Shown: piece after piece, positions 1-30,223 of the stretch | How positions within the stretch are numbered: the stretch's first letter is position 1 | Layout: each line of letters starts with the position of its first letter | NCBI GenBank assembly: GCA_964577555.1 | Contig: CAZNZM010000004.1 | Location: 23,200 to 55,199, forward strand | DNA: 32,000 nt | Origin: an uncultured archaeon | GTDB lineage: Archaea; Iainarchaeota; Iainarchaeia; Iainarchaeales; Iainarchaeaceae | Direction: 5' to 3' | Position numbers and translations under genes: made by a program | The notes under the pieces: generated by a model | Database searches by the model: none | The model's input: only the letters and a program-made list of their open reading frames with translations | What the model was told of the DNA's origin: nothing

Positions 1-2752
<2,752 letters not shown>

Positions 2753-3557: not shown

Positions 3558-5333
3558 TCAAGACTCTTTTAAATTATCATAAACTGAAACCCTGATAGAA
3601 ATCTTAACAGAATTTGACACACCCTTGTCATTAGAAACAGTAAGAAAAACATTGTGGTCACCAACATCATTAACACTAAAAGTTTTGGAAAAAGTTTTGC
3701 CTTCAACAGGCTCAGAATCATCAACCCTCCAAACCCAAGAAACAATTTTATTGCCAAGAGGATCAAAAGAATTGCTCCAAAAATCGACATCAACATCATT
3801 GCTTTCAGAAGTTATTATTACCGGATTTAGCGGAGAAAAACCTATCAAAGCAACAGGCTTCAAAGACAAAGGAGAAACAGAAACAACATCATACGGCTCC
3901 TGTTTTTTATAAACCCAAATCTTAACCTCTCTTTGAGTCCCATCCTTCAACGGCAAAGTCTTATTCACAACATACCTTTCCGCATTATCCTTTTTTGTAC
4001 CAAACTCAAACTTCTTGCCAACAACAGCATCAATCGTTGAAATTATGCTCTCTTTCAACAACGAAATGTCACAACCACCTGAACTACAATCAATAATATT
4101 TCCCTTGCTTACTCCGTCACCGCCTGCAAGCAACGCCATATGCTCCTTTATCTTGTTAATAGTTTCAGGGTTTGAATGCAAACCGGAAGAAGGAAAAGAA
4201 ACACAATTAAGTTTGCCATTACAATCAACACAATCATTCGAAGTAACACAAAGATTGCCGACAGAATCGCAAATAGGCGGAGCTCCATTGCCTTTAGGAT
4301 CGGTAAAAATCGGAACAACTCTATAATCATAATTCTTAAGAACAGAAATAGCGTGATTCACAAAAACAAGAGAACGATTGCCATTACTCAAATTACAAGT
4401 TTTATAATAAACCCTAACGTTACTGCCAGTTTCTTGATAACTATAAGGAGTATCAGACTCAGAACCAGAACTCAATTCATCAGAAGCCGGAAATATAAAA
4501 GTCACGGTTGGAAACTCCGACTCCATCCTTGCCTCTGGAACTTCCTTGGCAACATAAGCCGAAGCAGTAGCCCAATCCTCGTAAAACTCTCCTTTAAGAA
4601 TGTTCATATCTGGACTGCAATTAGACATGCAACAAATACGGGCTGGAAACTTGTCAACACCAACAAAATAAGGGCTTTGTGGGTTTTTAAGCGAATCCAC
4701 AAAATACTTATTATAAATACCAACCCCCAAAGAAGGACAAACATTGCCTGTGTTTGTCACAGGTATTTTATGGTCGGCTTCAATATAAGAACAATCAATA
4801 TCAATACTGGTACAATCAAACGAATTATTAGTATTGGTTTTTAGAATGAAAACTTTCTCTTCAAAAATAAAATCCCCCTTGGTGCGAAAAAAAGACTTTA
4901 TGTCAGGGATTATAACATTCAATTTGTCAATATCGTCACGCATGCTGTCAGAACCATCGACAATGAAATAAAGCCTTATTTTCATTTTAGGCGGAATAAT
5001 CTCCATATAATAATTTTCTTTCCCATAAATAGAGTCAAATATTTTTTCAACAATCTCCTTTCTATTAACATTTTGCCCATAATAATTGAAATCATAAGAC
5101 CATGAATATATCATGTCACCCATCAACTGTGCAACACTCATCTTAATGGTTGGTTCTTCAATCTGCAAAATCTCTCCAAAATCTGCTGAAATACGATGCT
5201 GTTCAAAAGCAATCTTATTGCTTTCAAAAACCTTTACGGCTTGGTCAAGCTGATTGAATTGAATCAAAGCCCAACCAGAAAGAAGCATGACAACAATAAT
5301 TACTATTGCAATAATATCTGAAACCGCAGACAT
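3558..5333 (-). CDS. Helix-anchored vWA + PKD protein (modular pilin-like adhesin candidate)
   Basis: The N-terminus is MSAVSDIIAIVIIVVMLLSGWALIQF, a single hydrophobic helix. A MIDAS-like motif YFIVDGSDSM is the rc of 4941-4970. The C-terminal FWSNSFDPLGNKIVSWVWRVDD...GDHNVFLTVSNDKGVSNSVKISIRV fits the PKD consensus. I count 14 Cys. The ATG at 5333 abuts the upstream stop. Confidence 0.75.
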   Translation of the reverse strand: MSAVSDIIAIVIIVVMLLSGWALIQFNQLDQAVKVFESNKIAFEQHRISADFGEILQIEEPTIKMSVAQLMGDMIYSWSYDFNYYGQNVNRKEIVEKIFDSIYGKENYYMEIIPPKMKIRLYFIVDGSDSMRDDIDKLNVIIPDIKSFFRTKGDFIFEEKVFILKTNTNNSFDCTSIDIDCSYIEADHKIPVTNTGNVCPSLGVGIYNKYFVDSLKNPQSPYFVGVDKFPARICCMSNCSPDMNILKGEFYEDWATASAYVAKEVPEARMESEFPTVTFIFPASDELSSGSESDTPYSYQETGSNVRVYYKTCNLSNGNRSLVFVNHAISVLKNYDYRVVPIFTDPKGNGAPPICDSVGNLCVTSNDCVDCNGKLNCVSFPSSGLHSNPETINKIKEHMALLAGGDGVSKGNIIDCSSGGCDISLLKESIISTIDAVVGKKFEFGTKKDNAERYVVNKTLPLKDGTQREVKIWVYKKQEPYDVVSVSPLSLKPVALIGFSPLNPVIITSESNDVDVDFWSNSFDPLGNKIVSWVWRVDDSEPVEGKTFSKTFSVNDVGDHNVFLTVSNDKGVSNSVKISIRVSVYDNLKES

Positions 5334-5756
5334 TCAAACACCTTTAAAGCAAAAATAAACCCGGCCAAGGCATTTTTGCCCCTTACTATTAATAATATTC
5401 ACGACGTAAGAATATTTCCTTTCACAAGAATCATTATTGCCTATTGCCCAAGACTTTTCACTACAACCAAGAAAATTTTCCATTTTGACAACATAACCGG
5501 AAACAACAGGAGTAGTACAATTAGAATTAATGCCAAACCTATCAAACTTGTTTTCGTCAAAAGTGCCAATGCAACGAAAAACAAAATCCCTTACTTGCCC
5601 GCTTTCCTGAAGAGGCTTTATTGAAGGAGTAAGCTGATTTACCGGAACAATAGAAGAATAACCAATATAAACAAGAAACAAAACAACAAAAACAATTATG
5701 ACAACAAGCATAAAAGTTGAAATCATAGAATAAATGCCTCTACAATCCATTGACAT
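5334..5756 (-). CDS. Small pilin-like exported protein (N-terminal RG + hydrophobic helix, 6 Cys after the helix)
   Basis: The N-terminus is MSMDCRG-IYSMISTFMLVVIIVFVVLFLVYIGY. It has an ATG start and lies in the tightly packed pilin string. Confidence 0.6.
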   Translation of the reverse strand: MSMDCRGIYSMISTFMLVVIIVFVVLFLVYIGYSSIVPVNQLTPSIKPLQESGQVRDFVFRCIGTFDENKFDRFGINSNCTTPVVSGYVVKMENFLGCSEKSWAIGNNDSCERKYSYVVNIINSKGQKCLGRVYFCFKGV

Positions 5757-6168
5757 CTATTCTGCCCCCGTTTTTTCTGTTCACCAAAAGCTCGGTTACA
5801 TAAGCAAGGTTAATGCTCAAATTAGAATCTGTACTGCAAAGCAAGATTCTGCATTGCATTATCTCGCCTGAATCAAAACAAATATTATTATCCCTAACCA
5901 AAAACAAGCCTTTTTCAGTCAAAGGATTATACTTATACTTGAAATTATAAGAAGCACAAGCATCATTAATCAAAGTCTGCATTTTAGTAACATCATTCTG
6001 AACCCGCTCGGCTTCAGGCCTCAAATTCTTGAAATTACCCAAAAGCCACATAGAAGCAAGCAATATAGCAGTTATAACTGCCAACCACAAAACAACATCT
6101 GACACCAAACTAGCCTTTGAATTCAAATTCAAAACATTCAAATCAGGCTTTGCACTCAATTTTAACAC
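5740..6168 (-). CDS. Small pilin-like exported protein (4 Cys after the helix); start codon uncertain and non-ATG
   Basis: ...NSKA-SLVSDVVLWLAVITAILLASMWLL. There is no in-frame ATG before the TM helix. The track start at 6168 is GTG, and TTG at 6126 or 6132 would give a short MN(L)NSKA leader. The SLVSD motif resembles SAVSD of 3558..5333. Confidence 0.55.
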   Translation of the reverse strand: MLKLSAKPDLNVLNLNSKASLVSDVVLWLAVITAILLASMWLLGNFKNLRPEAERVQNDVTKMQTLINDACASYNFKYKYNPLTEKGLFLVRDNNICFDSGEIMQCRILLCSTDSNLSINLAYVTELLVNRKNGGRIDVNGL

Positions 6169-6601
6169 CGCCCTTAACCCTTAAAAAAGAACAAGTAAAA
6201 TCAGTTACTGAAAAAGCTTCCCTGTGAAAAGTAGTGTCAAGGTTCAAATCATAATCCTGCGGAGGACAAGAACATTTTACACAATTACTACTGCCTTGAA
6301 ACTCCATACAAATTTTACTGCCAGAAGACCTGGCAAAAACAACAGAACCGCTTGCAAGAGGAAACTTTTCAGACAACAAAGTGTCAACAGCAGAATTGCA
6401 AACAAATTCGCACTTCTGCCCCATTCTTGCAAGCGAATTTTTTATTTGCTGGAGTTTTTGTTGATCAGAACCGGTAGAAACCAAATTAGCCACTATTAAA
6501 AGCCCAAAAACAGCTGTTATTACGCCAACATAGAGCCAAACAGCCTGATCCACAAAATCTCCCCAAAATGAAAGCAAATATAGACATTCATGAACATTCA
6601 A
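6143..6601 (-). CDS. Small pilin-like exported protein (8 Cys after the helix); start codon uncertain and non-ATG
   Basis: ...DQAVWLYVGVITAVFGLLIVANLV helix. The track start at 6601 is TTG, and an in-frame GTG at 6553 would give M-DQAVW.... There is no ATG before the helix. Confidence 0.55.
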   Translation of the reverse strand: MNVHECLYLLSFWGDFVDQAVWLYVGVITAVFGLLIVANLVSTGSDQQKLQQIKNSLARMGQKCEFVCNSAVDTLLSEKFPLASGSVVFARSSGSKICMEFQGSSNCVKCSCPPQDYDLNLDTTFHREAFSVTDFTCSFLRVKGGVKIECKA

Positions 6602-7157
6602 TGTCTATTGCACCATCGCCATCGCTGTCAAATGCACTGGAAAACCAATGAAACTTTTTATCATCATCAGACAAACCAGCATAACACCCGCCAGGCTTGA
6701 TGAATTGCATCAAAAGCTCGGTGGCTTCCTCTCTTGACTTGCCTTCTCTTTTCCAATAATTGCAAAGAAGATCCTTGCACGAAGACATATTCAAATTGGA
6801 AGAGCCGCAAGAAGTCAAAAGAGAACAATAAACCTTGTCGTCACAAACACCAACCCCTGCCTTGAAGCCAGTATTATTATACGACGGAAGAGCCCCCTGC
6901 TTCAAACGAAAATCAAAAGATTTTATGCAAAACTGCGCCAAACTATCAGCATCTCCAGCAGCACACAACCTTGAACATTCAGTCTTGCCACTGGAAATCT
7001 TGTTTTCAAAAGCGGCTTTATCCTGCTCCTCCTGAATTTTAGTGCCCTGCTCCTTGAACTGCTGAGAAACAAGCTGCAAAACCAGCATTGCAACAGCCAA
7101 AAGAACAAAAAGCACAATGAATATTTGAATTGCCATTTCCATTCCTTTCTGATTCAT
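6588..7157 (-). CDS. Pilin-like exported protein with a class III-like signal (MNQKG-MEMAIQIFIVLFVLLAVAML), 10 Cys and a C-terminal DxDxDG loop
   Basis: It has an ATG start that forms an ATGA overlap with the upstream stop. The C-terminus is FDSDGDGAIDIECS. Confidence 0.65.
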   Translation of the reverse strand: MNQKGMEMAIQIFIVLFVLLAVAMLVLQLVSQQFKEQGTKIQEEQDKAAFENKISSGKTECSRLCAAGDADSLAQFCIKSFDFRLKQGALPSYNNTGFKAGVGVCDDKVYCSLLTSCGSSNLNMSSCKDLLCNYWKREGKSREEATELLMQFIKPGGCYAGLSDDDKKFHWFSSAFDSDGDGAIDIECS

Positions 7158-7564
7158 GTTTTTACCTCCACTTTACCTTTATCAACATTCCAATTTATAA
7201 AAAAAGTTTTTACGCTTGCTTTCTCAACATTGCCAAGCACGTTGACATCGCCAACCAAAGCAACCAAATTCTCAGGAACAATATTATACGGTTCGTTAGA
7301 ATGAACAGTAAAACAAATACCGCTATGCAAATTCACACCATAATTCTTATTATAACACTCTTTTATCAAAGCAACCACTTCCCTGTCCGAAACAGAAGTA
7401 ACATCAATAAGATCAGCTCCTGTTGGCGGCTTTTTATCCCCACCAAAAAAACCCAAAATAGAATTCTTTCCAGCACCTATAAGATCCTGACTGAAATTAA
7501 TTACAAGAGTGCCAACTACCAAAACTATGAACAAGGTTATTATCAATTGAACAGGCATCTCCAT
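7154..7564 (-). CDS. Small pilin-like exported protein (MEMPVQLIITLFIVLVVGTLV..., 2 Cys)
   Basis: The track start at 7576 is GTG immediately after a TGA. ATG at 7564 gives MEMPVQL..., paralogous to the MEMAIQI of the next gene. Confidence 0.6.
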   Translation of the reverse strand: MEMPVQLIITLFIVLVVGTLVINFSQDLIGAGKNSILGFFGGDKKPPTGADLIDVTSVSDREVVALIKECYNKNYGVNLHSGICFTVHSNEPYNIVPENLVALVGDVNVLGNVEKASVKTFFINWNVDKGKVEVKT

Positions 7565-7684
7565 AAAAAAAACCACTCAAAACAAGAATAAAACGATTTC
7601 AAAATATTTAAATTAAACGCTTAAAGAACTTTCCAAAAAAACAAACTTGTCCTATAAACAACAAAAAAATAATGACGATTAGGC

Positions 7685-7692
7685 AAAAAAAA
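7685..7692 (-). terminator. Oligo-T (T8 on minus strand) directly after the stop of 7693..8124
   Basis: An A8 run on the + strand abuts tca (TGA) at 7693-7695. It is followed by the only sizeable gap (116 nt) in locus A, which contains a TATA-like tttaaatatt (~7603-7617). Confidence 0.45.
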
Positions 7693-8124
7693 TCAAGTTA
7701 TTTTCAACGCATGATTCCCGTTTTCATTGCAAGAAATATTTAAAATCCTTGGCAAAACAAGCGGCGGATTGTCAATCAAAATGCGACAATCAGTACAATA
7801 ATTCATTTTTCTAAAAAAATTATTCAATTTAGCTTCGTCGAGCTCCCCAATTTTGTTGCCATCAAAAGACTCGTCAAGAAGAACAACATTGCCGCAATCC
7901 TTATAAACTTCGCCAAACTGGCACTCTTGCCAACAATAATTAAGCTTTGCCGCAAACTTTGGAAAATTAACTTTGGTTAGGCTTGGTCCGTTGGCAGGAG
8001 GAATAAACATGTTCCTTACAGTATCACCAATCTTGTTAAAATCAAATTGAAAAACAAAAGCGGTTATCAAACCAGCAACTATAATAGTGAAAAAAAGAAA
8101 ACCAACAATTTCAATTGTTTCCAT
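7693..8124 (-). CDS. Pilin-like protein beginning directly with METIEIVGFLFFTIIVAGLITAFVF (E at position 5, no leader); 6 Cys; candidate major subunit
   Basis: It has an ATG start and one N-terminal hydrophobic helix. It is the last gene before the T8 tract. Confidence 0.6.
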   Translation of the reverse strand: METIEIVGFLFFTIIVAGLITAFVFQFDFNKIGDTVRNMFIPPANGPSLTKVNFPKFAAKLNYCWQECQFGEVYKDCGNVVLLDESFDGNKIGELDEAKLNNFFRKMNYCTDCRILIDNPPLVLPRILNISCNENGNHALKIT

Positions 8125-8128
8125 AACA

Positions 8129-8206
8129 TCACTTCAACATGCTTGTAACATACAATATAATCGCTCCAAAAGCTATTACTGCAATAATAACTTCAATCAC
8201 AACCAT
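8129..8206 (-). CDS. 25-aa single-helix peptide MVVIEVIIAVIAFGAIILYVTSMLK (pilin alpha1-like, E5), below the track cutoff
   Basis: Hand translated. The ATG is at 8206, 11 nt after the platform gene stop. The TGA at 8129-8131 lies 4 nt before the next ATG. The call is speculative because the ORF is so short. Confidence 0.35.
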   Translation of the reverse strand: MVVIEVIIAVIAFGAIILYVTSMLK

Positions 8207-8217
8207 TATTGTTTGAT

Positions 8218-10086
8218 TCACCTGACAAGCACCCCTTTGAAAATAATTTCAGTGAAAGCATAATAACCGCCAAACAACAAAGCACTATAAATCAAAAAAG
8301 AAATGGCAAGATTCTCGTAAATGGTTTTTGCAATTTTATATTTGTCCGTGCCATCCCTTATATTTGAAAGAAAAAGAGAAAGTATAATAGAAGTTTCAAT
8401 AAAATACGCGCCAACAATTATCTCAAGAATAGTAGGAGGAATTATGTCTTTTATCTTCACAAGCTCAAGATTAATAGGATTACTTCCAACACTTGTCAAT
8501 ACTTCATTAATCTTCTGCTTAATGAATTCAAGAGACATGACAATAGCAGCAGCCATTACAGTAGCAGTGGTTGCCAACAAAGGAGCCAACACCGTGACGG
8601 AAATACTTACAATAGAAACCGTTTCAGCCAAAAGAGTTTGAATATAATCATCCAACTTGTAAGTTGAAAGAGTCTGCTCCCTTATCATCTTGGCTGATTT
8701 GGCCGCGCTTTTCTGGTCAATCTCGGTAAAAATAACTATCCTCTTAATAATTTGAACCATGCGCCTTGAAGGTGCAACAGAAGGCAAAAACTTTTCAACC
8801 AAATCACCAAGAGACTTTTTGGTATTATAAAGAGCCTCTTCCAATGAAGAAATTATTTTAACAGTAGGATGCTGGCCAAAACCATGGCGTTGATAATCAT
8901 TCACAACATCCTTAAGAATACTCTCCATTGACCTGTTCAAAGAAAGATAACTTGCAAACATCTGCAAAAGGTGAGGCAAATCCCTTTCAGTCTCGTTCAT
9001 TTCAAGCCAAAGCCTTTCATTCCTCTTAGCATAAAAAAAGCAAAAAAGTTCAAAACAAAGAAAAAGACCAAAAAGCCCAAGCCAAATTTTTAAAATAGAA
9101 TCAAGAGCATACTCCCTTGCAATGCCTGAAGGAGTCTCAAGATTAATAGTAGTAATATGAAAAGCAGGAATAATCAAAGCAACCAAGCCAAGACCAACAA
9201 ACACTACATACCACCATTTAGGAATCTCTTTGAAACGAGGGCTTGTTGACAAATCAATAGTATTCACTTGAATCCTATTAGTTGCAAAATTCATGGCCAT
9301 GAAAAGCAAAAGAGTTGGAAAAAAAACCACGTAAAGAAAAATAAGCAAAGGCACATTAGCCAATTGAGGCATAAAAATTGTTATCAAAGGAAGCAAAATC
9401 AAAGACATCATTGGAATCATAACGCCGACAGAAATCAGAGTCTTGGTTTGATTTGAAAGTTTTTCAGTGAAACGCTTGCCAGCATCATAATAACTCAAAA
9501 TAACAGTTTCAATAACTTCATTAATAATAGCCTCCCTTTCAGTCTGCTGGGCAATTGCAGCAGTCTGAAGAAGATTAAGACCTTTAACAAACTCCGGATT
9601 AACCTGCAACCAAATTGGAATATAATACTCAAAAGCTTCACCAATAGTTTTATACTCTTTGGCTTCTATCTTCTCACGTATAGTCCTAAACTGCTTTCCA
9701 AGAGTACCGCCAAGACTTTCGGAAACATTCACAACAGCAGCTTCAACACTCGTATTAAGAAGAATATAATTCGACATTTCAAGTAAAGCCTGAAGCATTT
9801 CCTCCCTAAAAGCAACGATCCGCTGAGTATAATTAATGCTCAAAGCCCACAAAAAAGCCCCGGAAGCAATAATCAAAGCGCCAAAACCAAAAAGATAACT
9901 AAGCAACTGAATAGGAGTTGCAACAACAGCCAAAAACATTAAACCAAAAAAATAAATTACAATGCCAGAAGCAACTTCCTGAGAATTATAAGGAAATTCT
10001 ACCAACCTAAGCTTGTCTTCCCAACTCTGAATCCTTGATACAACCGGAAAACGCCTGCCAACCTCGTATACAAAATCAAAATACAT
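8218..10086 (-). CDS. Polytopic membrane platform protein, divergent PilC/ArlJ(FlaJ)/TadC-like with two T2SS-F-like repeats
   Basis: It is 622 aa with multiple TM segments and two helical cytoplasmic segments with T2SS-F-like patterning (…LGKQFRTIREKIEAKEYKTIGEAFEY… and …LPHLLQMFASYLSLNRSMESILKDVV…). It sits directly downstream of the ATPase. Confidence 0.65.
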   Translation of the reverse strand: MYFDFVYEVGRRFPVVSRIQSWEDKLRLVEFPYNSQEVASGIVIYFFGLMFLAVVATPIQLLSYLFGFGALIIASGAFLWALSINYTQRIVAFREEMLQALLEMSNYILLNTSVEAAVVNVSESLGGTLGKQFRTIREKIEAKEYKTIGEAFEYYIPIWLQVNPEFVKGLNLLQTAAIAQQTEREAIINEVIETVILSYYDAGKRFTEKLSNQTKTLISVGVMIPMMSLILLPLITIFMPQLANVPLLIFLYVVFFPTLLLFMAMNFATNRIQVNTIDLSTSPRFKEIPKWWYVVFVGLGLVALIIPAFHITTINLETPSGIAREYALDSILKIWLGLFGLFLCFELFCFFYAKRNERLWLEMNETERDLPHLLQMFASYLSLNRSMESILKDVVNDYQRHGFGQHPTVKIISSLEEALYNTKKSLGDLVEKFLPSVAPSRRMVQIIKRIVIFTEIDQKSAAKSAKMIREQTLSTYKLDDYIQTLLAETVSIVSISVTVLAPLLATTATVMAAAIVMSLEFIKQKINEVLTSVGSNPINLELVKIKDIIPPTILEIIVGAYFIETSIILSLFLSNIRDGTDKYKIAKTIYENLAISFLIYSALLFGGYYAFTEIIFKGVLVR

Positions 10087-10102
10087 TCCATTACTACCCC
10101 TT

Positions 10103-11770
10103 TCAATTTTTAGCCATCTCCATTACCCTTTCAGTAAACTGCTTTTTGAACTCATCCTCATTAGCTTTGCCCTGCAAAGGCTTAATCTTCTCAAAAAGAT
10201 CAACATACAAAGTATTAGCCTTCAAAACAAATTCAGCTTCAAGCTTTTGAGGCACTTCTGACATTATGTCAAAATACTTTTGCTTGGCCCAAGCCCTAAG
10301 CATAATATCAGCCAAAGCCGCATTATAATCCTTATAACCTTGGGTATGCTCAATTATTTCATTTATCACAACCGACTTGCCCTTCATAAAAACATCAGTA
10401 GGCACAAGAGTATCGCGTTTAGGATCATAAACCATCAAATCCTGGAAAACAGGTTCATCTTCCCAATCCTTAAGAACTTCAGTAACGGAAACAACACGCC
10501 TAACCCTATGCAAACCAGTAACAGTCTTTATCTGCTTCACCATTATAATCAAATCAGTAACCTTGAAAGAACCTTTTGGCACGCCAAGATCATTAACAAT
10601 CCTGTCATAAACACCATAAGGATTATCAGCATGAATTGTGCCGGCAACAGTCATGGACATGGCGCCAACCCTCATAGCCTCATACAAAACCTTCGCCTCT
10701 TTAGACCTGACTTCACCAAGAATAAGACAAGAATCACCAAGCCTCAAAGAAGTCCTCAAACCATGATCAAACGGAATTTCAAGACCCTCTTCCATCAAAG
10801 CAGACCTTACCTTAAGAGAAAGCAAATCATAACCAAACCTCTTATAATGATCAACAGGCAACTCCTGAGTATCTTCAATAGTAATAATCCTATACTTCTG
10901 CAAAATCTCAGTAATGGTTGCACCAAGCACAGAAGTCTTTCCAGACCCTCTTGGCCCTGCCACCAAAAAAGTCCTGCCATGAGCAATCACAAAAGACATA
11001 AAACCAGCAAACAAAGAATTCAAAGTATTATTCTTCATAAAAAGAGGCAAAGTCCAAGGACTCTCACGATGCTTCCTAATACTATACCCAATCCCATGAA
11101 CAGAAAACGGCGGAACAACAGCCTCAACCCTTGTCCTCACATTCTCAACATACAATTCGCCATCCAATTGAGGCTGAGCCTTGTTCAAAGGCCTGCCAGA
11201 CTCAATCTTCAAATAAGTAGCAAGATAATTCAAAAAATCAATAGAAGGATAAATGTTAGTCATGCACTCTTCAAACTCGTCATGAATCACAATCATAGGA
11301 GTCTGAAACTCTGGAGGATTAATATTAACCTCCTGAATATGAGGATCGCTCAACAAATAATCAAGAATGCCGTGCTTCTTAATCCAAATATTAAGCAACT
11401 GATCGGAAAAATCACGCCTCTCAAACTTTTCCCTAAGTTCCTTCAACTCCTCATACTTCTTGTCCAAACCAGGAATCTTAATAACATAAGCAATTCTAAG
11501 CTTGTCCTCAACATCAATTATGTCAACAGTAGCATCCTTTATATCATAACTCTTCAAAACCTTGCCTTCAAGAGGCTGTATCAACACATCAACAAAAAAA
11601 GGATAAACAACAAAATTCTTCTCCTGCAAATACTGCTGCTTCGTAAAAAGCTTGTTCTTATAAATCAAAATATCCAAATCAGGAGTTGGCTTGACACACG
11701 CATTGCACTGTGGAAAAGCAATATCATTCAAACCATCACAATTCTCACAATCCCTTATCTTATACTTCAT
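10103..11770 (-). CDS. Type II/IV secretion-family ATPase (ArlI/PilB/VirB11-like), divergent, with an N-terminal CxxC-x10-CxxC zinc ribbon
   Basis: Motifs: Walker A FLVAGPRGSGKTS, IITIEDTQELP, Walker B-like CLILGEVRSKEA, and His-box AGTIHADNP. The track start at 11830 is TTG; ATG at 11770 gives MKYKIRDCENCDGLNDIAFPQCNAC. Confidence 0.85.
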   Translation of the reverse strand: MKYKIRDCENCDGLNDIAFPQCNACVKPTPDLDILIYKNKLFTKQQYLQEKNFVVYPFFVDVLIQPLEGKVLKSYDIKDATVDIIDVEDKLRIAYVIKIPGLDKKYEELKELREKFERRDFSDQLLNIWIKKHGILDYLLSDPHIQEVNINPPEFQTPMIVIHDEFEECMTNIYPSIDFLNYLATYLKIESGRPLNKAQPQLDGELYVENVRTRVEAVVPPFSVHGIGYSIRKHRESPWTLPLFMKNNTLNSLFAGFMSFVIAHGRTFLVAGPRGSGKTSVLGATITEILQKYRIITIEDTQELPVDHYKRFGYDLLSLKVRSALMEEGLEIPFDHGLRTSLRLGDSCLILGEVRSKEAKVLYEAMRVGAMSMTVAGTIHADNPYGVYDRIVNDLGVPKGSFKVTDLIIMVKQIKTVTGLHRVRRVVSVTEVLKDWEDEPVFQDLMVYDPKRDTLVPTDVFMKGKSVVINEIIEHTQGYKDYNAALADIMLRAWAKQKYFDIMSEVPQKLEAEFVLKANTLYVDLFEKIKPLQGKANEDEFKKQFTERVMEMAKN

Positions 11771-12311
11771 GAGCCCCACCAACCACACTCTTATCAAACT
11801 TATAACCCGCACGCTCCATAACAGTTTCAATATTATTTATCCTCTTTCCCAACATGCCAACCATTTCAACAAGATTAAGATAAACATTCTTCACACGATA
11901 AGAAGAAACCGCACCATACATCTTCTCAATATCCGCAATCTTAACCATAATCTCCTTAGAACCGTCAGAAATGCCCGCCAAACCATCAGAATCATTCTCC
12001 ATAGAAATAAGACTACGCTCAATATCATCCAACCTTGTTTTGACAAGATCAAGCTTTGCATTAAAAATAACAAAACGCTCATTCAACCTCTCAACCTTTT
12101 CAATACCTTTTTTAGAAAGAGCCTCAGGATTAGCCTTTTCCAACATTTTAATAATCCGCTCAATTTTCATATAAATAAGATTTATTTGTGTGTCAAGAAA
12201 CCTCAACGCTTCAAGAGTCTCCAAATTAGCATCCTTCAAAACAACAAATTGATCAGTATTAACGTCATACGTCTTCCCAAACTGCTTCTGTTCAAAAACC
12301 TCTCGGGACAT
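11760..12311 (-). CDS. Helical/coiled-coil protein of unknown function, co-oriented with the locus A ATPase
   Basis: It has an ATG start and overlaps the ATPase start by 11 nt. The sequence is heptad-like and rich in E, K, L and I. I recognised no motif. Confidence 0.5.
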   Translation of the reverse strand: MSREVFEQKQFGKTYDVNTDQFVVLKDANLETLEALRFLDTQINLIYMKIERIIKMLEKANPEALSKKGIEKVERLNERFVIFNAKLDLVKTRLDDIERSLISMENDSDGLAGISDGSKEIMVKIADIEKMYGAVSSYRVKNVYLNLVEMVGMLGKRINNIETVMERAGYKFDKSVVGGAHEV

Positions 12312-12320
12312 AAAACCAAA

Positions 12321-12989
12321 TCAGCCCCCGAAAATTTTCTTGAGAGAACCAAAAAAATTATCAAAAAAACCAACTTTAACCTCTTCAGGCTTCTTAGGCT
12401 GAACCTGCTCCTTAGACTCCTCTTGGCTTGAAACAACCTTTTGATCCTGCCCAGAAGTAACCTGAATAGCCAATTGCTCCTCAATATACTTTATCCTCTT
12501 CTCAAGAGTCTCCATCACATTAATAAGAGCCATAAAAGTATCCTTGGTCTCGGAAACAGAAAGACCCTGATAAAGCTCTTCAAGAGAAACAACCTTGTTA
12601 TAAAGACTGTCAAATTGATTCTTGCTTATCTTGGTCTGCAAAATCTCCTTAAGCTCGTCATCCCTTTCCTTCAATTCATTAGTCTTCTGAAGAAAAATAT
12701 TCAACTTTGATTCGGCAGAAGCAAGATTCTGCTCCAAATTATTAAGTTTTTGAATAACATCAGTAGCCTCAGTCAAAGGAACCCCAACAGAAACAGTATT
12801 CTCAAGCTGATCAATCTTAGAACTCAACTCCCCAATACTCGCAAGCAAATAATTCTGCTTCTCTTTCAACTTTGGATCCTTGACATTCGCCGGAAAAATA
12901 GAATTCATTGTTGAAGCAACCTGATTCACAGAATCTTTAAGTTCTTGAGTTTCATTAGCCACAAAAACCACACCCAAAAAACATACCAA
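12321..12989 (-). CDS. Coiled-coil protein of unknown function (first gene of locus A); start uncertain
   Basis: The track start at 12989 is TTG. The TATA-like box at 13010-13017 would put the TSS at ~12987, so GTG at 12962 (M-ANETQELK...) or ATG at 12908 are alternatives. It has long heptad-like stretches and ends GFFDNFFGSLKKIFGG. Confidence 0.5.
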   Translation of the reverse strand: MVCFLGVVFVANETQELKDSVNQVASTMNSIFPANVKDPKLKEKQNYLLASIGELSSKIDQLENTVSVGVPLTEATDVIQKLNNLEQNLASAESKLNIFLQKTNELKERDDELKEILQTKISKNQFDSLYNKVVSLEELYQGLSVSETKDTFMALINVMETLEKRIKYIEEQLAIQVTSGQDQKVVSSQEESKEQVQPKKPEEVKVGFFDNFFGSLKKIFGG

Positions 12990-13009
12990 AAAAATAAAAG
13001 AACAATCAC

Positions 13010-13017
13010 ATATAAAT
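13010..13017 (-). promoter_or_regulatory. TATA box (ATTTATAT on minus strand) for the locus A operon
   Basis: It lies in the 194-nt divergent spacer, ~24 nt upstream of the longest-ORF start. Confidence 0.4.
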
Positions 13018-13150
13018 GGATTACTATAAAACCAATTCTACACAAAATATCGGATTTAGTAATAATTCAAAGCCAACTATTCAGCACAAACCCCAAACAA
13101 CAAATAAATTAATATTTCAACCTATTTTTACAAAAAAAACACTAGTGAAC

Positions 13151-13160
13151 ATTAAAATAG
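13151..13160 (+). promoter_or_regulatory. TATA-like box (attaaaatag) for 13184..15241
   Basis: It is centred ~29 nt upstream of the ATG at 13184. Confidence 0.35.
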
Positions 13161-13183
13161 TAGTATGAATTTTATAAATAAAG

Positions 13184-15241
13184 ATGATTCAAGTTAACAG
13201 CAAAGGAAACGCAATAGCAATAGTGCTTGCAGCAGTAGTAATCACGACAATAGTTGTAGTAACATTACAAAACACTCCTCCAATAAATATAAACAATCAA
13301 CAAAACTCAACAGAAAAACTAATGAGCGAATTTGAAAATTCAATAGAAAAAGGCTTCAAAAATTCAACATACAAAATAATGAAAAACGGATTCTCCACAG
13401 ACGACCCAATATGGTTTTACAACAAACCAACCATGCCAAGCTTAAAAGAATTTGACAAAAACTTCACAGACTTAACCAAAAAAGAAATAGAAGAACTGCT
13501 AAAAGAACTCAAAAACAAGACAGGATACGAATACGACCCAGCAAGCCTAAAAGTAGAACTAAAAACCAACATTGACAAAACAAAAAAACCAATTGAACAA
13601 ATAAAAGCCCTGCCAGAAGACAAACCATTGGATTTGGAAATAAACGTGCTGGCAACAGTAAAAGAAGGAGACCAAGAAAAACAAATACAATACACCAAAA
13701 CAAAAAAAATCCCAGCAAATACTATAAAAACATACAAAAAACTTGCAGAATGGATGGAAACAGACATGAAACACTTTGAAATAGAAACGGCAAGCGCAAT
13801 GGACGAAGCAGGATACTGCCAAGTAGCACTATGCGATTGCACAAGCGACCCAGAACCAAGAGATGAAGAAGGCAATTTGTTGAAAATGATAGACGAGAAA
13901 TTCATCAAAGGAAATTACAACACAGAAAACATAAAACCAAAATACGAAAAAATGCTGCAAACAAAAATAGACAAATTAAACCAAAAACTTACAGGGACAG
14001 GCATAACTTGTACATATGAAATAGAAAAATGGGAAACAAGCACAGACGAATACAGAGAACAACAATGCGTGGAACCAAAATCCGATGAATCATTGCAAAG
14101 GCACTGCAAAGAACCAGGCGGAAGATGGCAAAACATAAGAATAAGCGAAACACTTGACAAAATAACAGTAGAAGAACTATACAATAATGAAACAACCAAA
14201 AGAGAACCTAATCAAAACCCACAACAAAAAGACTATGACACAAAATACATTTACTATGAATGGCAAGAAATGAAAGAAAAAGACACTGTGCCAAAAAGAG
14301 AAAAAACAATGGAAAGCAACAACATAATAGGAGAAAAAAGAGAAACAAACCCAAAAATAGAACTAAAAGACTGCGGAAAAGAAAAAAAACATAAAGACGA
14401 ACTAGTTGCACTAAACCCAAAACTATACGCAAAAGTAGCAATCAAATGCAACGAACCGCAAGAATTGATAGGAACAAGCAAAAAAGAAGAAACAGCAACA
14501 ACAATAATAAAAATTGTCACAGCACTTGAAAAAACCTGCCAACCAAAACCGCTTAAACCAAACCCGCCTCTCTCGGCAGAACCAACAAAATGCCTCGGAG
14601 CAAATTCAGCACCAATAATTGAATGCGAAGAAGACATTGACTGCATACCAGAAGAACTAAGAGATCCAAAAATTACAGGAAGCTCAAAAGGAGGAATCTG
14701 CACAAAATTCTGGTGCGAAAAAGACGCACAAAAAATACAAGAAATCATGGAAAGAAACAACAACCTAACCAAAGAACAATACAATAATATAATAAAAAAC
14801 AATAAAGGAGTTTGCAAACAAGAATACGTTGGAATTGATTTAAAACAATGCCCGGGGATAAACAAATGCAACAAAGCAACATGCTCATACATAGATGAAA
14901 GTGGAAACCTTTATCCAAACGGAAGATGCAAATTAGAACCTGTTTTATGCCAAGGAAACAGCACATCAATAAACACATGCGGAGCACCATTAAAATGCGA
15001 CGAAAGCAAAGGATGCATACCCGACACATCAAACACAAACTCATACCTTAATTGCACTGAAAACAAAGAATTATACAAAGGCAGCTGCATAACACCTTCA
15101 TGCGTATGCGACACAAAAGAATGTACAAGATACAAATGCATATCAACCGCAAAAAACGATTTATGCCCTCCAACTAATGAAGGCATATCACAATACTGCA
15201 ACCCAATAAACGGGCTTTGCGAAAGAACAATATACTCATGA
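13184..15241 (+). CDS. 685-aa pilin-like (class III signal-like N-terminus) secreted protein with a cysteine-rich C-terminal half
   Basis: The N-terminus is MIQVNSKG-NAIAIVLAAVVITTIVVVTLQ. I count 32 Cys, 18 of them in the last ~150 aa (CxxxC and CxC spacings). It is K/E/N/T-rich and is transcribed divergently from locus A. Confidence 0.65.
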   Translation: MIQVNSKGNAIAIVLAAVVITTIVVVTLQNTPPININNQQNSTEKLMSEFENSIEKGFKNSTYKIMKNGFSTDDPIWFYNKPTMPSLKEFDKNFTDLTKKEIEELLKELKNKTGYEYDPASLKVELKTNIDKTKKPIEQIKALPEDKPLDLEINVLATVKEGDQEKQIQYTKTKKIPANTIKTYKKLAEWMETDMKHFEIETASAMDEAGYCQVALCDCTSDPEPRDEEGNLLKMIDEKFIKGNYNTENIKPKYEKMLQTKIDKLNQKLTGTGITCTYEIEKWETSTDEYREQQCVEPKSDESLQRHCKEPGGRWQNIRISETLDKITVEELYNNETTKREPNQNPQQKDYDTKYIYYEWQEMKEKDTVPKREKTMESNNIIGEKRETNPKIELKDCGKEKKHKDELVALNPKLYAKVAIKCNEPQELIGTSKKEETATTIIKIVTALEKTCQPKPLKPNPPLSAEPTKCLGANSAPIIECEEDIDCIPEELRDPKITGSSKGGICTKFWCEKDAQKIQEIMERNNNLTKEQYNNIIKNNKGVCKQEYVGIDLKQCPGINKCNKATCSYIDESGNLYPNGRCKLEPVLCQGNSTSINTCGAPLKCDESKGCIPDTSNTNSYLNCTENKELYKGSCITPSCVCDTKECTRYKCISTAKNDLCPPTNEGISQYCNPINGLCERTIYS

Positions 15242-15256
15242 TTGCCCAAAAACTGC

Positions 15257-15265
15257 AAAAAAAAA
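15257..15265 (-). terminator. Oligo-T (T9 on minus strand) directly after the topA stop codon
   Basis: An A9 run on the + strand abuts cta (TAG) at 15266-15268. Confidence 0.45.
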
Positions 15266-17479
15266 CTACTTTTGCTTTTCGCCAACTTTAACCGCATTAG
15301 ATTTACTTTTTGAAACAACTTCGCTCTTTGATTTTCTGGAAACCTTTTTTCTAACAGACACAGGTTTGTTCACAACCGAATCAACATACTTTTCTGAAGA
15401 ATTATAATCCGAAACAGAAACTTGCAAAGCGCTTTTTGCTTTTTCAGCCTCGACAATTTTAGCCTTCCAATCGGCTTTAGTAACACAATTAGGGTCAAGG
15501 CACATTTCAAAACGCCTCCTAGCCAAAGAAACAGCAACCTTAGGAGAACCACACTTATCACAATTCACATTAAGAGCACTTAACTTGCCTTTTTGAGGCA
15601 ACGGAAAAGCATTAACACATCGAGGATAATTAGAACAACCCACAAAACGCTTTTTTTTCTTGCTCATCAAAACCCTCAAATCGCCGCCACATTTTTGACA
15701 TTTCCCAACAACCGAATCTGCAGCAAAACCTGAAAGTATACCTGCCCTTATACTATCCTTATTCTCAAGCATCCTGTCAAGAATCACATGCAAAAACTTC
15801 CTGGACTCGTCAACAACTTCCTTTTTTGTCCTTTTACCAGCAGCAATTTTATCCATTTCAACTTCAAGCTTCGCAGTCATGTCAGGCTTGACAGCATCAA
15901 CATTATTCTTTTCAAGAGAATCAATAACCGCAAAAGCAACCTTGCTGGGTTCAATAGATTTGGAACCAAAAATATAACGCCGAGAATAAAGTTTTTGAAT
16001 AATAGTATGGCGAGTACTTTTAGTGCCAAGCCCAAGCTCCTCCATGAGCTTTATCAAAGTAGATTGACTATACCTTGCAGGCGGCTGAGTTTCCTTTTCA
16101 ACCAAATCCAAAGAAACCAAATTTACAACATCACCTACTGACAAACGAGGCAAAATAACTTCAGTAAGTTGAGAATAAGGATAATAAGCCTTCCAACCAG
16201 ACACAACAATCTTTTGCCCATTAGCAACAAACGGCTGTCCGGCAACATCAATATCAACAGAAACATTTTCAGTCAAAGCATCATCAGCAACAGTAGCCAT
16301 GAACCTCCTAACAATCAACTCATAAATTTTCCACTGCCTATCACTCAAACTTTCCTTTGGAGCAGCTTGAACAGGATGAATAGGCGGATGATCCTTTGTC
16401 TCCTTGCTACCCCTTGAAGCCACAATATTGCCTTTTGAAAGAATAGACTCTGCATCCTTCTTAAAATCAGGAACCTTAGAAATCTCCTTCAACACACCAA
16501 CCAAGTCAAGAGATGAAGGATAAACAGTATTATCAGTACGAGGATAAGAAGTATAACCTTGCTGATAAAGAAACTCAGCGATCTCCATGGCTTGATTTGC
16601 AGAAAAACCAATAGAAGTGGCTTGCCTGAGAAAATCGGTAGTATTAAAAGGAGTAGGCTTCTTCACAACCCTGCTTGAAGACTTTAAATTCACCACCTTG
16701 CCAAAATCAGGTTTGCCATTAAACAAAGACTCCGCCTCAGCCTTAACCCAAAATTTGCCTTTTTTGTGTTCTGCAACAAACTGCTTAGAATCCTTTTCAA
16801 AAACAGCATGATACTCCCAATACTTTTTCTTATCAAACGCAAGACGCTCCTTCTCCCTATTCACAATAATTGCAAGCACCGGAGTCTGAACCCTTCCAAC
16901 ACTCAAAAAATTCTTGCCAAGCTTGCCCGCAACCAAAGACAAAAACCTTGTCAAAACAGCACCCCAAATCAAATCAATCTCGCGCCTTGAATCAGCAGAA
17001 TCAGCATAATTAAAATTCACATCTGAAAGATTTGAAAAAGCATAAGACAAATCCTTTTTAGTAATCGCAGAAAAGTAAGCCCTTTTCACAACTATGTTTG
17101 GGTTTGAACTCTTAATATAATTCAAAGCCTCTACACCAATACTTTCACCCTCACGATCAGCATCAGTAGCAATAATAACCTCGCTAGCTAATTTACCAGC
17201 TTCCTTCAAAGCATCAATAATGGCTTTCTCCTTTCCAAAATACTCGACTTCAGCATCAACAAGAGTCTTAAGATCAGTGCCAATCCAATAATTATATTTC
17301 TTTGGAAAATCAACATCAACAATATGCCCCCGCAAAGGAATAACCATGCAATCAACACCACCCCAAACAAACCTGAAAACCTGAGCAGAACCAAGCTGAC
17401 TAACACTGACTTTTTTACCAGCAAGTATAGAAGCAATATTGCTCCCAGCAATAGACTTTTCCGCAACTATCAACTTCAT
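15266..17479 (-). CDS. topA: Type IA DNA topoisomerase (TopA/Topo III-like) with two C-terminal zinc ribbons and a K/S-rich tail
   Basis: Toprim N-terminus MKLIVAEKSIAGSNIA. Also DADREGE, the active-site GYTSYPRTDN, CQKCGGDL...CSNYPRC and CDKCGSP...CLDPNC. Confidence 0.92.
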   Translation of the reverse strand: MKLIVAEKSIAGSNIASILAGKKVSVSQLGSAQVFRFVWGGVDCMVIPLRGHIVDVDFPKKYNYWIGTDLKTLVDAEVEYFGKEKAIIDALKEAGKLASEVIIATDADREGESIGVEALNYIKSSNPNIVVKRAYFSAITKKDLSYAFSNLSDVNFNYADSADSRREIDLIWGAVLTRFLSLVAGKLGKNFLSVGRVQTPVLAIIVNREKERLAFDKKKYWEYHAVFEKDSKQFVAEHKKGKFWVKAEAESLFNGKPDFGKVVNLKSSSRVVKKPTPFNTTDFLRQATSIGFSANQAMEIAEFLYQQGYTSYPRTDNTVYPSSLDLVGVLKEISKVPDFKKDAESILSKGNIVASRGSKETKDHPPIHPVQAAPKESLSDRQWKIYELIVRRFMATVADDALTENVSVDIDVAGQPFVANGQKIVVSGWKAYYPYSQLTEVILPRLSVGDVVNLVSLDLVEKETQPPARYSQSTLIKLMEELGLGTKSTRHTIIQKLYSRRYIFGSKSIEPSKVAFAVIDSLEKNNVDAVKPDMTAKLEVEMDKIAAGKRTKKEVVDESRKFLHVILDRMLENKDSIRAGILSGFAADSVVGKCQKCGGDLRVLMSKKKKRFVGCSNYPRCVNAFPLPQKGKLSALNVNCDKCGSPKVAVSLARRRFEMCLDPNCVTKADWKAKIVEAEKAKSALQVSVSDYNSSEKYVDSVVNKPVSVRKKVSRKSKSEVVSKSKSNAVKVGEKQK

Positions 17480-17484
17480 AAAAA

Positions 17485-17955
17485 CTACAACTTTTTTTGC
17501 TGAAGAAAAGAAGGAAGCTGCCTAGAACGCTTAACCTCAGAAATAACCACTAAAGTTTTTATGTCAAGAACACCATCCATATTGCCAAGCATCTCAACAA
17601 ACTTTTCGGCAGAATCAAGGTCAGGCACAACAAGACGAGCAAGAATATTATACTCGCCAAGAACCTGATAAACCTCCATAACATAATCAAGCTCTTTAAG
17701 CCTCTTAATGACATCCTTGTTCTTAGAAAGCTCCGACCTAATCTGAACAAAAATAGGGTTTTCAAAACCAAGAATCTTCAAATTCAAATCAACAGTTATA
17801 ACATTAATAATTCCCCTGCGCTTCAACCTTTCAACCCTCTTCTTTATTGCAACATCAGTAAGATTAACCTCCTTTGCAATAACGCTAAAAGAAGCCCTGC
17901 CATCCTCAAGCAACATACTCAAAATCTTATGATCAATCTTGTCAAGAGTCTCCAA
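17485..17955 (-). CDS. Lrp/AsnC-family transcriptional regulator
   Basis: LDKIDHKILSMLLEDGRASFSVIAKEVNLTDVAIKKRVERLKRRGII plus a RAM-like C-terminal domain. No ATG can include the HTH. The options are TTG at 17955 (METLDKID...) or TTG at 17973 (the track start). The TATA-like aaatataaag at 17991-18000 favours 17955. Confidence 0.88.
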   Translation of the reverse strand: METLDKIDHKILSMLLEDGRASFSVIAKEVNLTDVAIKKRVERLKRRGIINVITVDLNLKILGFENPIFVQIRSELSKNKDVIKRLKELDYVMEVYQVLGEYNILARLVVPDLDSAEKFVEMLGNMDGVLDIKTLVVISEVKRSRQLPSFLQQKKL

Positions 17956-19621: not shown

Positions 19622-20348
19622 TAATCTCGAACTTGGACATATACAATTCAGTCTTAAGAGATTCAAAAAACGGAACAACAACAACCAAAGCAACAACAAG
19701 AGAAACAAAACCACCAACGCCAAAAGCCAAGTCAATCAAAAACTCCAACAACTGCAACAAAGTGACAGCCAAAAAACCTGAAACAAAAGCAATAACAAAT
19801 GCAAAAGGGTTTTTTAGCATAAATTCAAAAGACGACAAAACCGAGGACAACAAACCTTCCTCATCAACCACTATAGCCTGCCCAAGAAAAAGAAAAGGCA
19901 AAGAAACAAAAAAAAGCAACAAATTAACAACCAAAGGCGAAACCCCAAAATCAATAAGAAGAGAAGAAACCACCGCAGCCAAAACAACAAAAATCGCCAA
20001 AAATTGAAAATACTTCAACCCGAATTTCGACACCTTCTCGCTCAAATAATAATGCAACTTAACCTTGTTAAAATCAGCCCTAACAGCAAAAATCATCAAA
20101 CAAACCAAAACAGAATAAAAAAACAAAAACACCAAAGCCAACAAAAGCAAAAAAACAGCATCAACCAACGGTTTTTTCAAAAAACCATAATCAATCATGA
20201 CAGTTCCTGAAGAAACAACCACGTTTGAAAGCCAAGAAAACGGCAATACAAAAAAAAGCAAAAGACTGAAAGAGGCCGCAGTAGTAATATTATTCTTATA
20301 ATCCTCTAACGCTTCAAGAAAAACCATAAAAACCACAAAAAAAATCAT
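19593..20348 (-). CDS. Polytopic membrane protein of unknown function
   Basis: It has an ATG start and about 6 hydrophobic segments. I recognised no catalytic motif. Its 3' end overlaps the convergent 18074..19621 by 29 nt. Confidence 0.5.
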   Translation of the reverse strand: MIFFVVFMVFLEALEDYKNNITTAASFSLLLFFVLPFSWLSNVVVSSGTVMIDYGFLKKPLVDAVFLLLLALVFLFFYSVLVCLMIFAVRADFNKVKLHYYLSEKVSKFGLKYFQFLAIFVVLAAVVSSLLIDFGVSPLVVNLLLFFVSLPFLFLGQAIVVDEEGLLSSVLSSFEFMLKNPFAFVIAFVSGFLAVTLLQLLEFLIDLAFGVGGFVSLVVALVVVVPFFESLKTELYMSKFEIIKPYRSFGL

Positions 20349-29077: not shown

Positions 29078-29079
29078 AA

Positions 29080-30219: not shown

Positions 30220-30223
30220 AAAC

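Follow-up and report, generated by a model that had tools for sequence, protein, structure and literature searches.

What kind of protein closes the string of small pilin-like genes in this stretch, 32,000 nucleotides of contig CAZNZM010000004.1 from an uncultured archaeon of the Iainarchaeaceae (hereafter the window), and what would it do for the filament system encoded beside it? A preliminary description of this DNA had proposed a helix-anchored protein with a vWA and a PKD domain, a candidate modular pilin or tip adhesin. We consider it probable that the product of the gene at positions 3558-5333 is a modular pilin-like surface protein which serves as terminal subunit in a DPANN type IV filament system. 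Its architecture and its membership of a pilus operon are the parts of this reading that we hold with high confidence; towards a role as tip adhesin we lean with less assurance. The gene and the main parts of its product are as follows.

3558..5333, minus strand: target gene in the list of open reading frames (ORFs), encoding a 591-aa pilin-anchored vWA-like and PKD protein; stop codon at 3558-3560.
5259..5333, minus strand: residues 1-25, leaderless hydrophobic N-terminus MSAVSDIIAIVIIVVMLLSGWALIQ, the sole hydrophobic segment of the protein.
5166..5330, minus strand: residues 2-56, a single continuous helix as long as alpha1 of a type IV pilin (AlphaFold2 model, pLDDT 90-98).
4998..5165, minus strand: residues 57-112, a small alpha/beta connector or head in the AlphaFold2 model, with conserved E60, L70, D100, G104 and Y108-Y109.
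3999..4997, minus strand: residues 113-445, a probable vWA-type (integrin beta-I-like) Rossmann domain (AlphaFold2, Foldseek, weak profile matches).
4584..4838, minus strand: residues 166-250, the first of two Cys-rich inserts in the vWA domain, including b3 and C174, C181, C199, C234, C235 and C239.
4170..4301, minus strand: residues 345-388, second Cys-rich insert (C355, C362, C368, C371, C377).
3849..3998, minus strand: residues 446-495, a beta-hairpin neck joining the vWA domain to the PKD domain (strands 453-461 and 467-475, pLDDT >90).
3579..3848, minus strand: residues 496-585, a PKD immunoglobulin (Ig)-like domain (Pfam PKD_4, Foldseek).

The protein begins MSAVSDIIAIVIIVVMLLSG in the ORF list, and an identical protein (P0001) is named only "hypothetical protein" in public collections. 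The AlphaFold2 (AF2) model computed from 142 sequences reached a predicted local distance difference test score (pLDDT) of 89.1 and a predicted template modelling score (pTM) of 0.85; it replaced a run with four close homologues, in which pLDDT was 44 and the PKD domain alone was reliable. Over residues 118-438 the elements follow the order of a Rossmann-like vWA fold: b1 118-125, a1 129-152, b2 156-165, b3 181-185, a helix at 254-264, b4 276-284, helices within 304-332, b5 at about 337-344 (a strand at 342-344 in the 142-sequence model), a helix at 389-404, b6 414-416 and a helix at 423-438. The preliminary description had named an AlphaFold model as a check on its proposal, and the model returned both an N-terminal helix of alpha1 length and, with confidence, the vWA-type order. 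The neck belongs to the conserved core of the family to which the protein belongs (P461, Y475), and G445 marks the domain boundary in 130/130 members.

For the C-terminal domain, the earlier assignment to PKD proved correct: Pfam PKD_4 matches residues 524-582 with 28.5 bits against a cut-off of 27, and Foldseek aligns the model with PKD crystal structures (6aem, 4l9d, 4tn9) at template modelling scores (TM-scores), normalised to the target, of 0.80-0.86. Weak matches to PKD chains were also obtained among PDB sequences, and the model forms a beta-sandwich over residues 497-582, so that a profile above cut-off and an Ig-like fold both place it among PKD domains (Pfam PF18911 / PF00801). The count of 14 Cys given in the preliminary description was exact (174, 181, 199, 234, 235, 239, 313, 355, 362, 368, 371, 377, 416, 421). 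The two inserts contain most of them and interrupt the fold, the first being a region of lower confidence in the model, and C174, C199, C313, C355, C371 and C377 are kept in >95% of members (for example C174 in 121/125 and C199 in 116/121).

A word-indexed search gave three non-identical relatives of 82%, 37% and 34% identity, one of them labelled Ca. Diapherotrites, and a search for loci with the four-sequence alignment returned two Ca. Iainarchaeum loci only. An exhaustive HMMER search, in which a profile of the N-terminal 487 residues was run against sequences clustered at 50% identity, revealed a family of about 141 representatives, 98 of them at E<=1e-10. By their source names they come from Woesearchaeota, Nanoarchaeota, Aenigmatarchaeota, Ca. 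Diapherotrites and Ca. Iainarchaeum, and essentially all are from DPANN archaea; a single member on a 2.8-kb contig labelled Aquificota is probably a binning error. No Pfam or NCBIfam model covers the family, whose members are all named "hypothetical" or after their C-terminal beta-helix module alone. To the constant core the long members add PKD, Big/Ig, LamG/ConA lectin, papain C1, C25, reprolysin-like or beta-helix modules. Such swapping of C-terminal modules would be expected of a subunit that is exposed and determines specificity, and together with the conserved Cys it favours a location at the cell surface.

The identity of the central domain depends largely on a set of acidic and hydroxyl residues that would build a metal ion-dependent adhesion site (MIDAS).

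4944..4958, minus strand: D126-G-S128-D-S130, the MIDAS-type DxSxS motif at the end of b1 (YFIVDGSDSM), followed by M-R-D133-D134.
4575..4577, minus strand: D253 (of D253-W254), proposed as fourth MIDAS ligand; helix 254-264 starts here.
4479..4481, minus strand: D285 (within S-D-E-L), proposed as fifth MIDAS ligand; it comes straight after b4.

The DxSxS motif, already pointed out in the preliminary description, is present as D126-x-S128-x-S130, and its residues are conserved in 122/133 (D126), 113/131 (S128) and 121/130 (S130, as S or T) members. D253 is found in 119/127 members and W254 in 120/127; D285 and E286 are found in 117/128 and 100/129, respectively. All five MIDAS-type residues thus occur in about 90% or more of the family, which appears to us the strongest argument for a domain of this type, and in the AF2 model they lie where b1 ends, where a helix begins and where b4 ends, the positions expected in a vWA fold. 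The stretch DGSDSMRDD of the target has the form DxSxSxxDD, and the motif is invariant in the four closest homologues; the target and its close relatives read DGSxS[ML]xDD; columns 133 and 134 are acidic in about 79 and 101 members, and the D133/D134 pair is invariant among close relatives only.

Several comparisons lead from this domain to integrins. Apart from PKD domains, integrin beta subunits were the best PDB matches in Foldseek (E 1.5e-5 to 1e-3, probability 0.97-1.0). The 142-sequence profile gave 19 weak matches against PDB sequences (E 0.4-1.6), 18 of which were integrin beta-8 or alpha-L I domains (E 0.4-1.2) aligned on b1-DxSxS-a1, with D126-x-S128-x-S130 placed against DVSASMHNN of integrin beta-8; the single protein or the four-sequence profile (phmmer/hmmsearch) returned only PKD matches and noise from the same sequences. 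Relatives of the target give Pfam matches to VWA_4, VWA, VWA_3, Integrin_beta and TssR_VWA that remain below threshold (15-19 bits against a cut-off of 27) and begin at profile position 2-3, exactly on the DxSxS strand. Integrin beta subunits carry the motif DLSYSMKDD, in which two aspartates form the site adjacent to the MIDAS (ADMIDAS), and D-x-S-x-S-M-x-D-D of the target has the same spacing. The candidate fourth ligand, which is acidic, and the candidate fifth, an Asp, are 32 residues apart in the target, as in integrins (about 32 residues; T209-D242 in alphaM, E220-D251 in beta3), and the disulfide-containing insert after b2/b3 recalls the specificity-determining loop of the beta-I domain. 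The target differs from integrins in giving no Pfam Integrin_beta match (one relative reaches E 6e-4, below threshold) and in lacking the hybrid/PSI domain context and an alpha-subunit partner; the likeness probably reflects a deep relationship among vWA domains, or convergence, and not orthology. Since the fold, the weak profile matches and the conservation of residues agree, we accept the central domain as vWA-type and integrin-beta-I-like, with a MIDAS that is probably functional and would bind a metal ion.

At the other end of the protein, the hydrophobic segment runs into a long (about 50 aa) alpha1-type helix, as in pilins, and residues 1-25 are predicted to serve both as membrane anchor and as an alpha1N-like segment of the filament core. 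No longer N-terminal leader is possible for the target, because an in-frame TGA directly precedes its ATG (…FKGV, stop, MSAVSD). Here (5325-5345, minus strand) gene 5334-5756 ends and the target begins in one and the same frame, TGA being followed directly by ATG; in the relatives L001 and L002 the same gene pair overlaps by 4 nt in differing frames. Most family members, the target included, are leaderless, and the general N-terminal pattern is M-[G/A/S]-x-x-[E/D]-[N/D/E]-I with some 20 hydrophobic residues after it. E or D occupies family column 5 in 85 members and N, D or E column 6 in 101; among leaderless members which start at the Met, 71/85 have A, S, G or T as their second residue. About 30 distant members possess short basic leaders with canonical archaeal class III sites of the [KR][GA]/Q type (a slash marks the cleavage site), such as MKG/QAFEIMGF, MNKHQKG/QISETLGF, MRKG/MIDKIF and KA/QFSEML, and MAFFT places M-[G/A/S] of the leaderless members on K-G of the leader-bearing ones. 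One of the latter (P0108) is encoded within a run of proteins with MRKG/, KRKG/, MSKG/, RRKG/ and NKKG/ leaders. The pilin-like helix of the preliminary description is therefore borne out by the helix at residues 2-56, the conserved acidic column 5/6 and the KG/Q signals of distant members. So is the parallel it drew between SAVSD and SLVSD of gene 5740-6168 (…NSKA/SLVSD), because an Asp falls at +5 in both once the Met of the target is removed. D6 then becomes D5, and its register relative to E5 of bacterial pilins hinges on N-terminal processing. When family residues 1-115 are used as a profile, the small pilin-like proteins encoded next to the target align in register, over the helix only and weakly (<=15 bits), as is typical of pilins and would be no strong evidence alone. 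On these grounds the target may be called pilin-like, with removal of the Met, cleavage after residue 2 or no processing at all as the options.

The genes that precede the target, listed in the order of transcription, are those of a type IV filament system.

10103..11830, minus strand: type IV filament assembly ATPase of the FlaI/TadA type (Pfam T2SSE E 5.6e-19; NCBIfam FlaI and TadA ~1e-34).
8218..10086, minus strand: 622-aa polytopic membrane protein, the presumed platform (TadC/FlaJ-like); adjoins the ATPase gene and gives weak SpoIIIAB-type matches.
7693..8124, minus strand: small pilin-like gene 1, leaderless METIEIV… (METIEIVGFLFF), from the ORF list and comparison with L003.
7154..7576, minus strand: small pilin-like gene 2; likely true start at 7564, leaderless MEMPVQ… (MEMPVQLIITLF).
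6588..7157, minus strand: small pilin-like gene 3, MNQKG/MEMAIQ… (MNQKG/MEMAIQIFIVLF), 189 aa, Cys-rich.
6143..6601, minus strand: small pilin-like gene 4; likely true start GTG at 6553, leaderless MDQAVWLYVGV.
5740..6168, minus strand: small pilin-like gene 5, …NSKA/SLVSDVVLWLAVITA; orthologues KG/SITNE and RKG/DSASN.
5334..5756, minus strand: small pilin-like gene 6, …DCRG/IYSMIS (…DCRG/IYSMISTFMLVVIIVF); orthologues VKG/MYSVVSAF, NKG/MYSIVSAF and KRG/VYAVLTSF.

Six small pilin-like genes, and not the five first reported, precede the target. Most genes of the operon abut or overlap, the widest gaps (about 90-130 nt) lying on both sides of small gene 1. The start proposed for small gene 4 has GGGGAG 5 nt 5' of the GTG, its orthologues begin MEQAVWLY and MEQPIWLF, and the public gene call is 136 aa long; the Woesearchaeota orthologue of small gene 2 begins MEMPITVIITLF.

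The position at the end of the pilin string was correctly recognised from the outset; the string itself lies behind the ATPase and platform genes, and the arrangement is kept in other DPANN phyla. A Woesearchaeota contig (L003) shows the identical nine-gene order of ATPase, platform, six small genes and target homologue, and each of its small proteins matches the counterpart in the window at the N-terminus, including which of them are leaderless. Platform orthologues of 621 and 622 aa adjoin the ATPase gene in L003 and L008. In L008, five small genes stand before the homologue, and a T2SSE ATPase and a 622-aa membrane protein are encoded a few genes downstream, within 10 kb; L009 and L010 contain similar gene strings. 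The last three small genes and the target homologue are kept, with 4-nt overlaps, in Ca. Iainarchaeum/Diapherotrites contigs, and in L001, L002, L008 and L010 the homologue comes after small pilin-like genes. On the evidence of L003, L008-L010 and the Iainarchaeum contigs, the tie to a type IV filament system holds across DPANN phyla.

Within the operon, four of the seven pilin-like proteins seem leaderless (METIEI, MEMPVQ, MDQAVW, MSAVSD) and three carry [KR][GA]/ leaders; the Woesearchaeota orthologues (L003 3555-7584) show the same split.

Among bacterial systems, the closest analogues are PilB, discussed below, and TadG with its Caulobacter orthologue CpaL. In TadG/CpaL, as in the target, a pilin-like N-terminal helix module is followed by a MIDAS vWA domain interrupted by an insert; the operon includes a gene for a TadA-type ATPase, and small pseudopilin genes (TadE/F, CpaJ/K) come before that of the vWA protein. 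CpaL is predicted to consist of a pilin module and a MIDAS vWA domain with insert and to sit at the pilus tip with CpaJ/K (PMC11870444), the location predicted for TadG/CpaL in general (PMC11870444; PMC12075869), and the KilN tip complexes of Myxococcus provide a functional precedent (PMC12075869). Tad pili are themselves thought to be of archaeal ancestry (PMC11870444). CpaL comes with a predicted leader and a G/A-x4-F/E site. The archaeal target, by contrast, is leaderless, has Cys-rich loops as inserts instead of two beta-barrels, carries a C-terminal PKD domain and finds its best structural matches in integrin beta-I domains. A relationship at the level of sequence was not detected: Pfam Tad/TadE (PF13400 / PF07811) is absent from the target at E<=1 and from the best 25 of 39 families in family-wide scans, and a tblastn search of plasmids for TadG-like relatives gave no match.

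Minor pilin PilB of Streptococcus sanguinis, which the preliminary description had cited appropriately, also joins a pilin module to a vWA domain whose MIDAS has a protruding "arm" on either side. PilB binds metal at its MIDAS, has been established as an adhesin by experiment and is modelled at the pilus tip (PMC8179133). The logic of a module grafted onto a pilin is common to both, the DPANN family displaying it through its variable C-terminal modules. Unlike the target, PilB possesses a canonical class III signal of the bacterial type (IPR012902) and a complete beta-sheet pilin head. The other analogue named in that description, the PilY1 family, is not the closest one. PilY1/PilC is likewise a large adhesin encoded with minor pilins, and the vWA-like N-terminal domain of P. 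aeruginosa PilY1 is implicated in mechanosensing (PMC11870444), but PilY1, with its Sec signal and its beta-propeller at the C-terminus, is no pilin, whereas the target has a pilin-like N-terminus, ends in PKD and gives no Pfam match to PilC/PilY1 (Neisseria_PilC) or DUF2341. Tip adhesins of sortase pili (RrgA, SpaC, GBS104) combine a MIDAS vWA domain with inserted arms and Ig-like domains at the tip (PMC11870444; PMC8179133); they are polymerised covalently by sortase, with LPXTG motifs and a Sec signal, and their assembly is unrelated. By profile the target thus lies outside the TadG, PilY1 and bacterial N-methyl pilin families, and would work in the manner of TadG/CpaL and PilB.

Several observations weigh against the reading of the target as a pilin-borne MIDAS adhesin. 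It has neither a basic leader nor a [KR][GA] prepilin-peptidase site (start MSAVSD) and, since the basic leader is absent, does not pass formally as a class III pilin; no candidate for a prepilin peptidase was found within the window. Residues 57-112 are below the size of a canonical pilin beta-sheet head. The target itself has no match to a vWA or pilin family in Pfam (E<=1) or NCBIfam, and no match to the vWA clan at curated thresholds was obtained for the relatives either. Of the earlier claim of a vWA-like region with Cys-rich inserts, the fold, the MIDAS conservation and the two inserts therefore stand, whereas the profile match does not; the HMM search named with it as a check yielded PKD above cut-off and no VWA. 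The Foldseek alignments with integrins have low TM-scores (0.2-0.37) and high root-mean-square deviations, because whole multi-domain chains were compared, and hhalign aligned the family with the integrin alphaL I domain (1LFA) over b1-MIDAS-a1 alone, at 38% probability.

The likeliest of three alternatives, though itself unlikely, holds that the target belongs to the pilus machinery but is no distal adhesin, being instead a membrane-held base or anchor, or a priming or regulatory factor. It would act as in the proposal that TadG anchors the pilus or in a PilY1-like control of assembly and mechanosensing, and its vWA domain would bind parts of the machinery or of the envelope (S-layer). Because the prepilin-peptidase site is absent, the target might on this account never leave the membrane; the anchor hypothesis for TadG is cited by Makarova et al. 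(PMC4858521), and CpaL influences pilus number and surface sensing besides adhesion (PMC11870444). However, the operon encodes three further pilin-like proteins without a leader, and the conserved acidic residue together with the small residue at position 2 mimics the N-terminus of a processed pilin. Moreover, variable lectin, protease and Ig modules fit contact with outward ligands better than a fixed contact with machinery.

Less probable still is an ordinary signal-anchored (type II membrane) surface adhesin with a plain transmembrane helix, merely co-encoded with the pilus genes. The missing class III signal would suit such a protein, as would an N-terminal profile that matches the neighbouring pilins at <=15 bits over the helix only. 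In every locus inspected, however, the target gene abuts or overlaps the preceding pilin-like gene, and there are homologues with canonical KG/Q signals. Nor would a generic anchor be expected to have E or D at column 5 or 6 with G, A, S or T at position 2 (71/85), a pilin-like combination, or to continue into the 55-residue helix of the model.

That the central domain is some other Rossmann-like module, an enzyme or a Sec23-trunk-like scaffold with a coincidental DxSxS, is highly improbable: the lack of an above-threshold vWA profile match and the presence of the Sec23 trunk, GH158 and PPAD among the weaker Foldseek matches are outweighed by the facts that the Sec23 trunk is itself a vWA fold, that five MIDAS-position residues occur at the correct secondary-structure positions in about 90% or more of some 130 members, and that the PDB profile matches are almost all integrin vWA domains aligned at the motif.

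Returning to the preferred reading of a modular, pilus-borne subunit, we can outline how it might operate. The N-terminus would keep the target in the membrane with its N-terminal end inside and its C-terminal end outside, until the FlaI/TadA-type ATPase and the platform drive it, with the six small pilin-like proteins, into a priming complex. By analogy with the bacterial systems described above, a MIDAS adhesin would then probably be presented at the pilus tip by an archaeal modular pilin. The divalent cation of the MIDAS would complete its coordination through an acidic group of the ligand, which could be a protein or glycan of a host-cell envelope or another surface, while the Cys-rich arms and the PKD domain would add specificity and reach, the latter possibly as a second contact. 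Across the family, a constant pilin-vWA core with a swapped C-terminal module would retune specificity. The location at the tip, the metal binding and the ligand are all inferred.

A more ambitious picture is doubtful but worth stating. It envisages a dedicated pilus shared by DPANN archaea, with an integrin-beta-like MIDAS (possibly also ADMIDAS) tip adhesin and exchangeable C-terminal modules, by means of which these ultrasmall and often host-dependent archaea would recognise their partners and take hold of them. Of the seven pilin-like subunits, four would be leaderless pilins entering the filament without prepilin-peptidase cleavage, and the family could represent the archaeal lineage ancestral to TadG/CpaL of Tad pili. 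A relationship to TadG/CpaL, if demonstrated, would be relevant to the proposal that those pili originated in archaea.

Censuses of archaeal type IV filaments already report adhesin-like, "PilY-like" (DUF2341) and Ig-rich proteins in such loci and postulate tip adhesins (PMC4858521; bioRxiv 10.64898/2026.04.22.720090). The sole vWA proteins in these two censuses are of the cytoplasmic ArnB/MoxR-associated type; a vWA/MIDAS pilin, or the present DPANN family, is described in neither. A cytoplasmic ArnB-like vWA regulator was considered for the target and ruled out, because the protein has an N-terminal anchor, conserved Cys and a PKD domain. Literature searches on DPANN archaea in connection with vWA, pilins or adhesins returned nothing relevant, and we found no paper describing an archaeal vWA pilin, in agreement with the earlier statement that no archaeal equivalent has been characterised. 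The published survey of modular pilins covers bacteria only, and archaea are nowhere mentioned in that paper (PMC8179133). What is new is therefore an archaeal, mostly leaderless family of pilins with an integrin-beta-like vWA domain; the principle was already known from bacteria, where alone the "modular pilin" had been documented, and is here extended to archaea. Little is known of how DPANN archaea find host cells or surfaces and attach to them, and annotation of their pilus loci is poor; the family offers a concrete, testable candidate for an adhesive pilus tip. Its leaderless pilins also raise a mechanistic question regarding subunits without a cleavable leader.

Some further features of the window were noted. 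The pilus ATPase (10103-11830) has a CxxC…CxxC arrangement in its N-terminus (CENCDG…CNAC), which suggests a zinc ribbon before the T2SSE domain. Directly upstream of its gene, two small proteins (11760-12311 and 12321-12989, minus strand) with weak coiled-coil-type Pfam matches (Snapin/syntaxin-like) may be accessory components of the same operon. The 251-aa polytopic membrane protein at 19593-20348 (minus strand) was considered as a divergent prepilin peptidase and set aside, with no Pfam or NCBIfam match and nothing else in its support. Promoter and terminator scans 3' of the target gave nothing; their consensus is bacterial and uninformative for an archaeon. The 685-aa ORF at 13184-15241 (plus strand), which has no Pfam match, begins with a class III-like N-terminus (MIQVNSKG/NAIAIVLAAVVITTIVVV) and is extremely Cys-rich in its C-terminal third; its product may be a second large pilin-anchored surface protein, divergently transcribed from the operon. 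A second type IV filament locus (27338-31177, plus strand) consists of a T2SSE ATPase gene (E 2.8e-44) followed by two T2SSF platform genes, a split platform resembling the "system 1" (Epd-like) layout (bioRxiv 10.64898/2026.04.22.720090).

In L003, the vWA-pilin gene is followed by one for a 939-aa protein without Pfam match (7586-10405), and a nearby surface protein of >4500 aa (12770-17584) combines domains of the FG-GAP, LamG and toxin-receptor-binding-like types; in the window, no counterpart of either protein is encoded downstream of the target gene. Finally, the coding strands of the window are strongly purine-rich, with an AT skew of up to 0.6 and a GC skew that is always negative on the plus strand. 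Long ORFs of up to 513 aa run antisense to real genes (e.g. 10280-11821 and 1151-1885, plus strand) and look like artefacts of composition, not genes.

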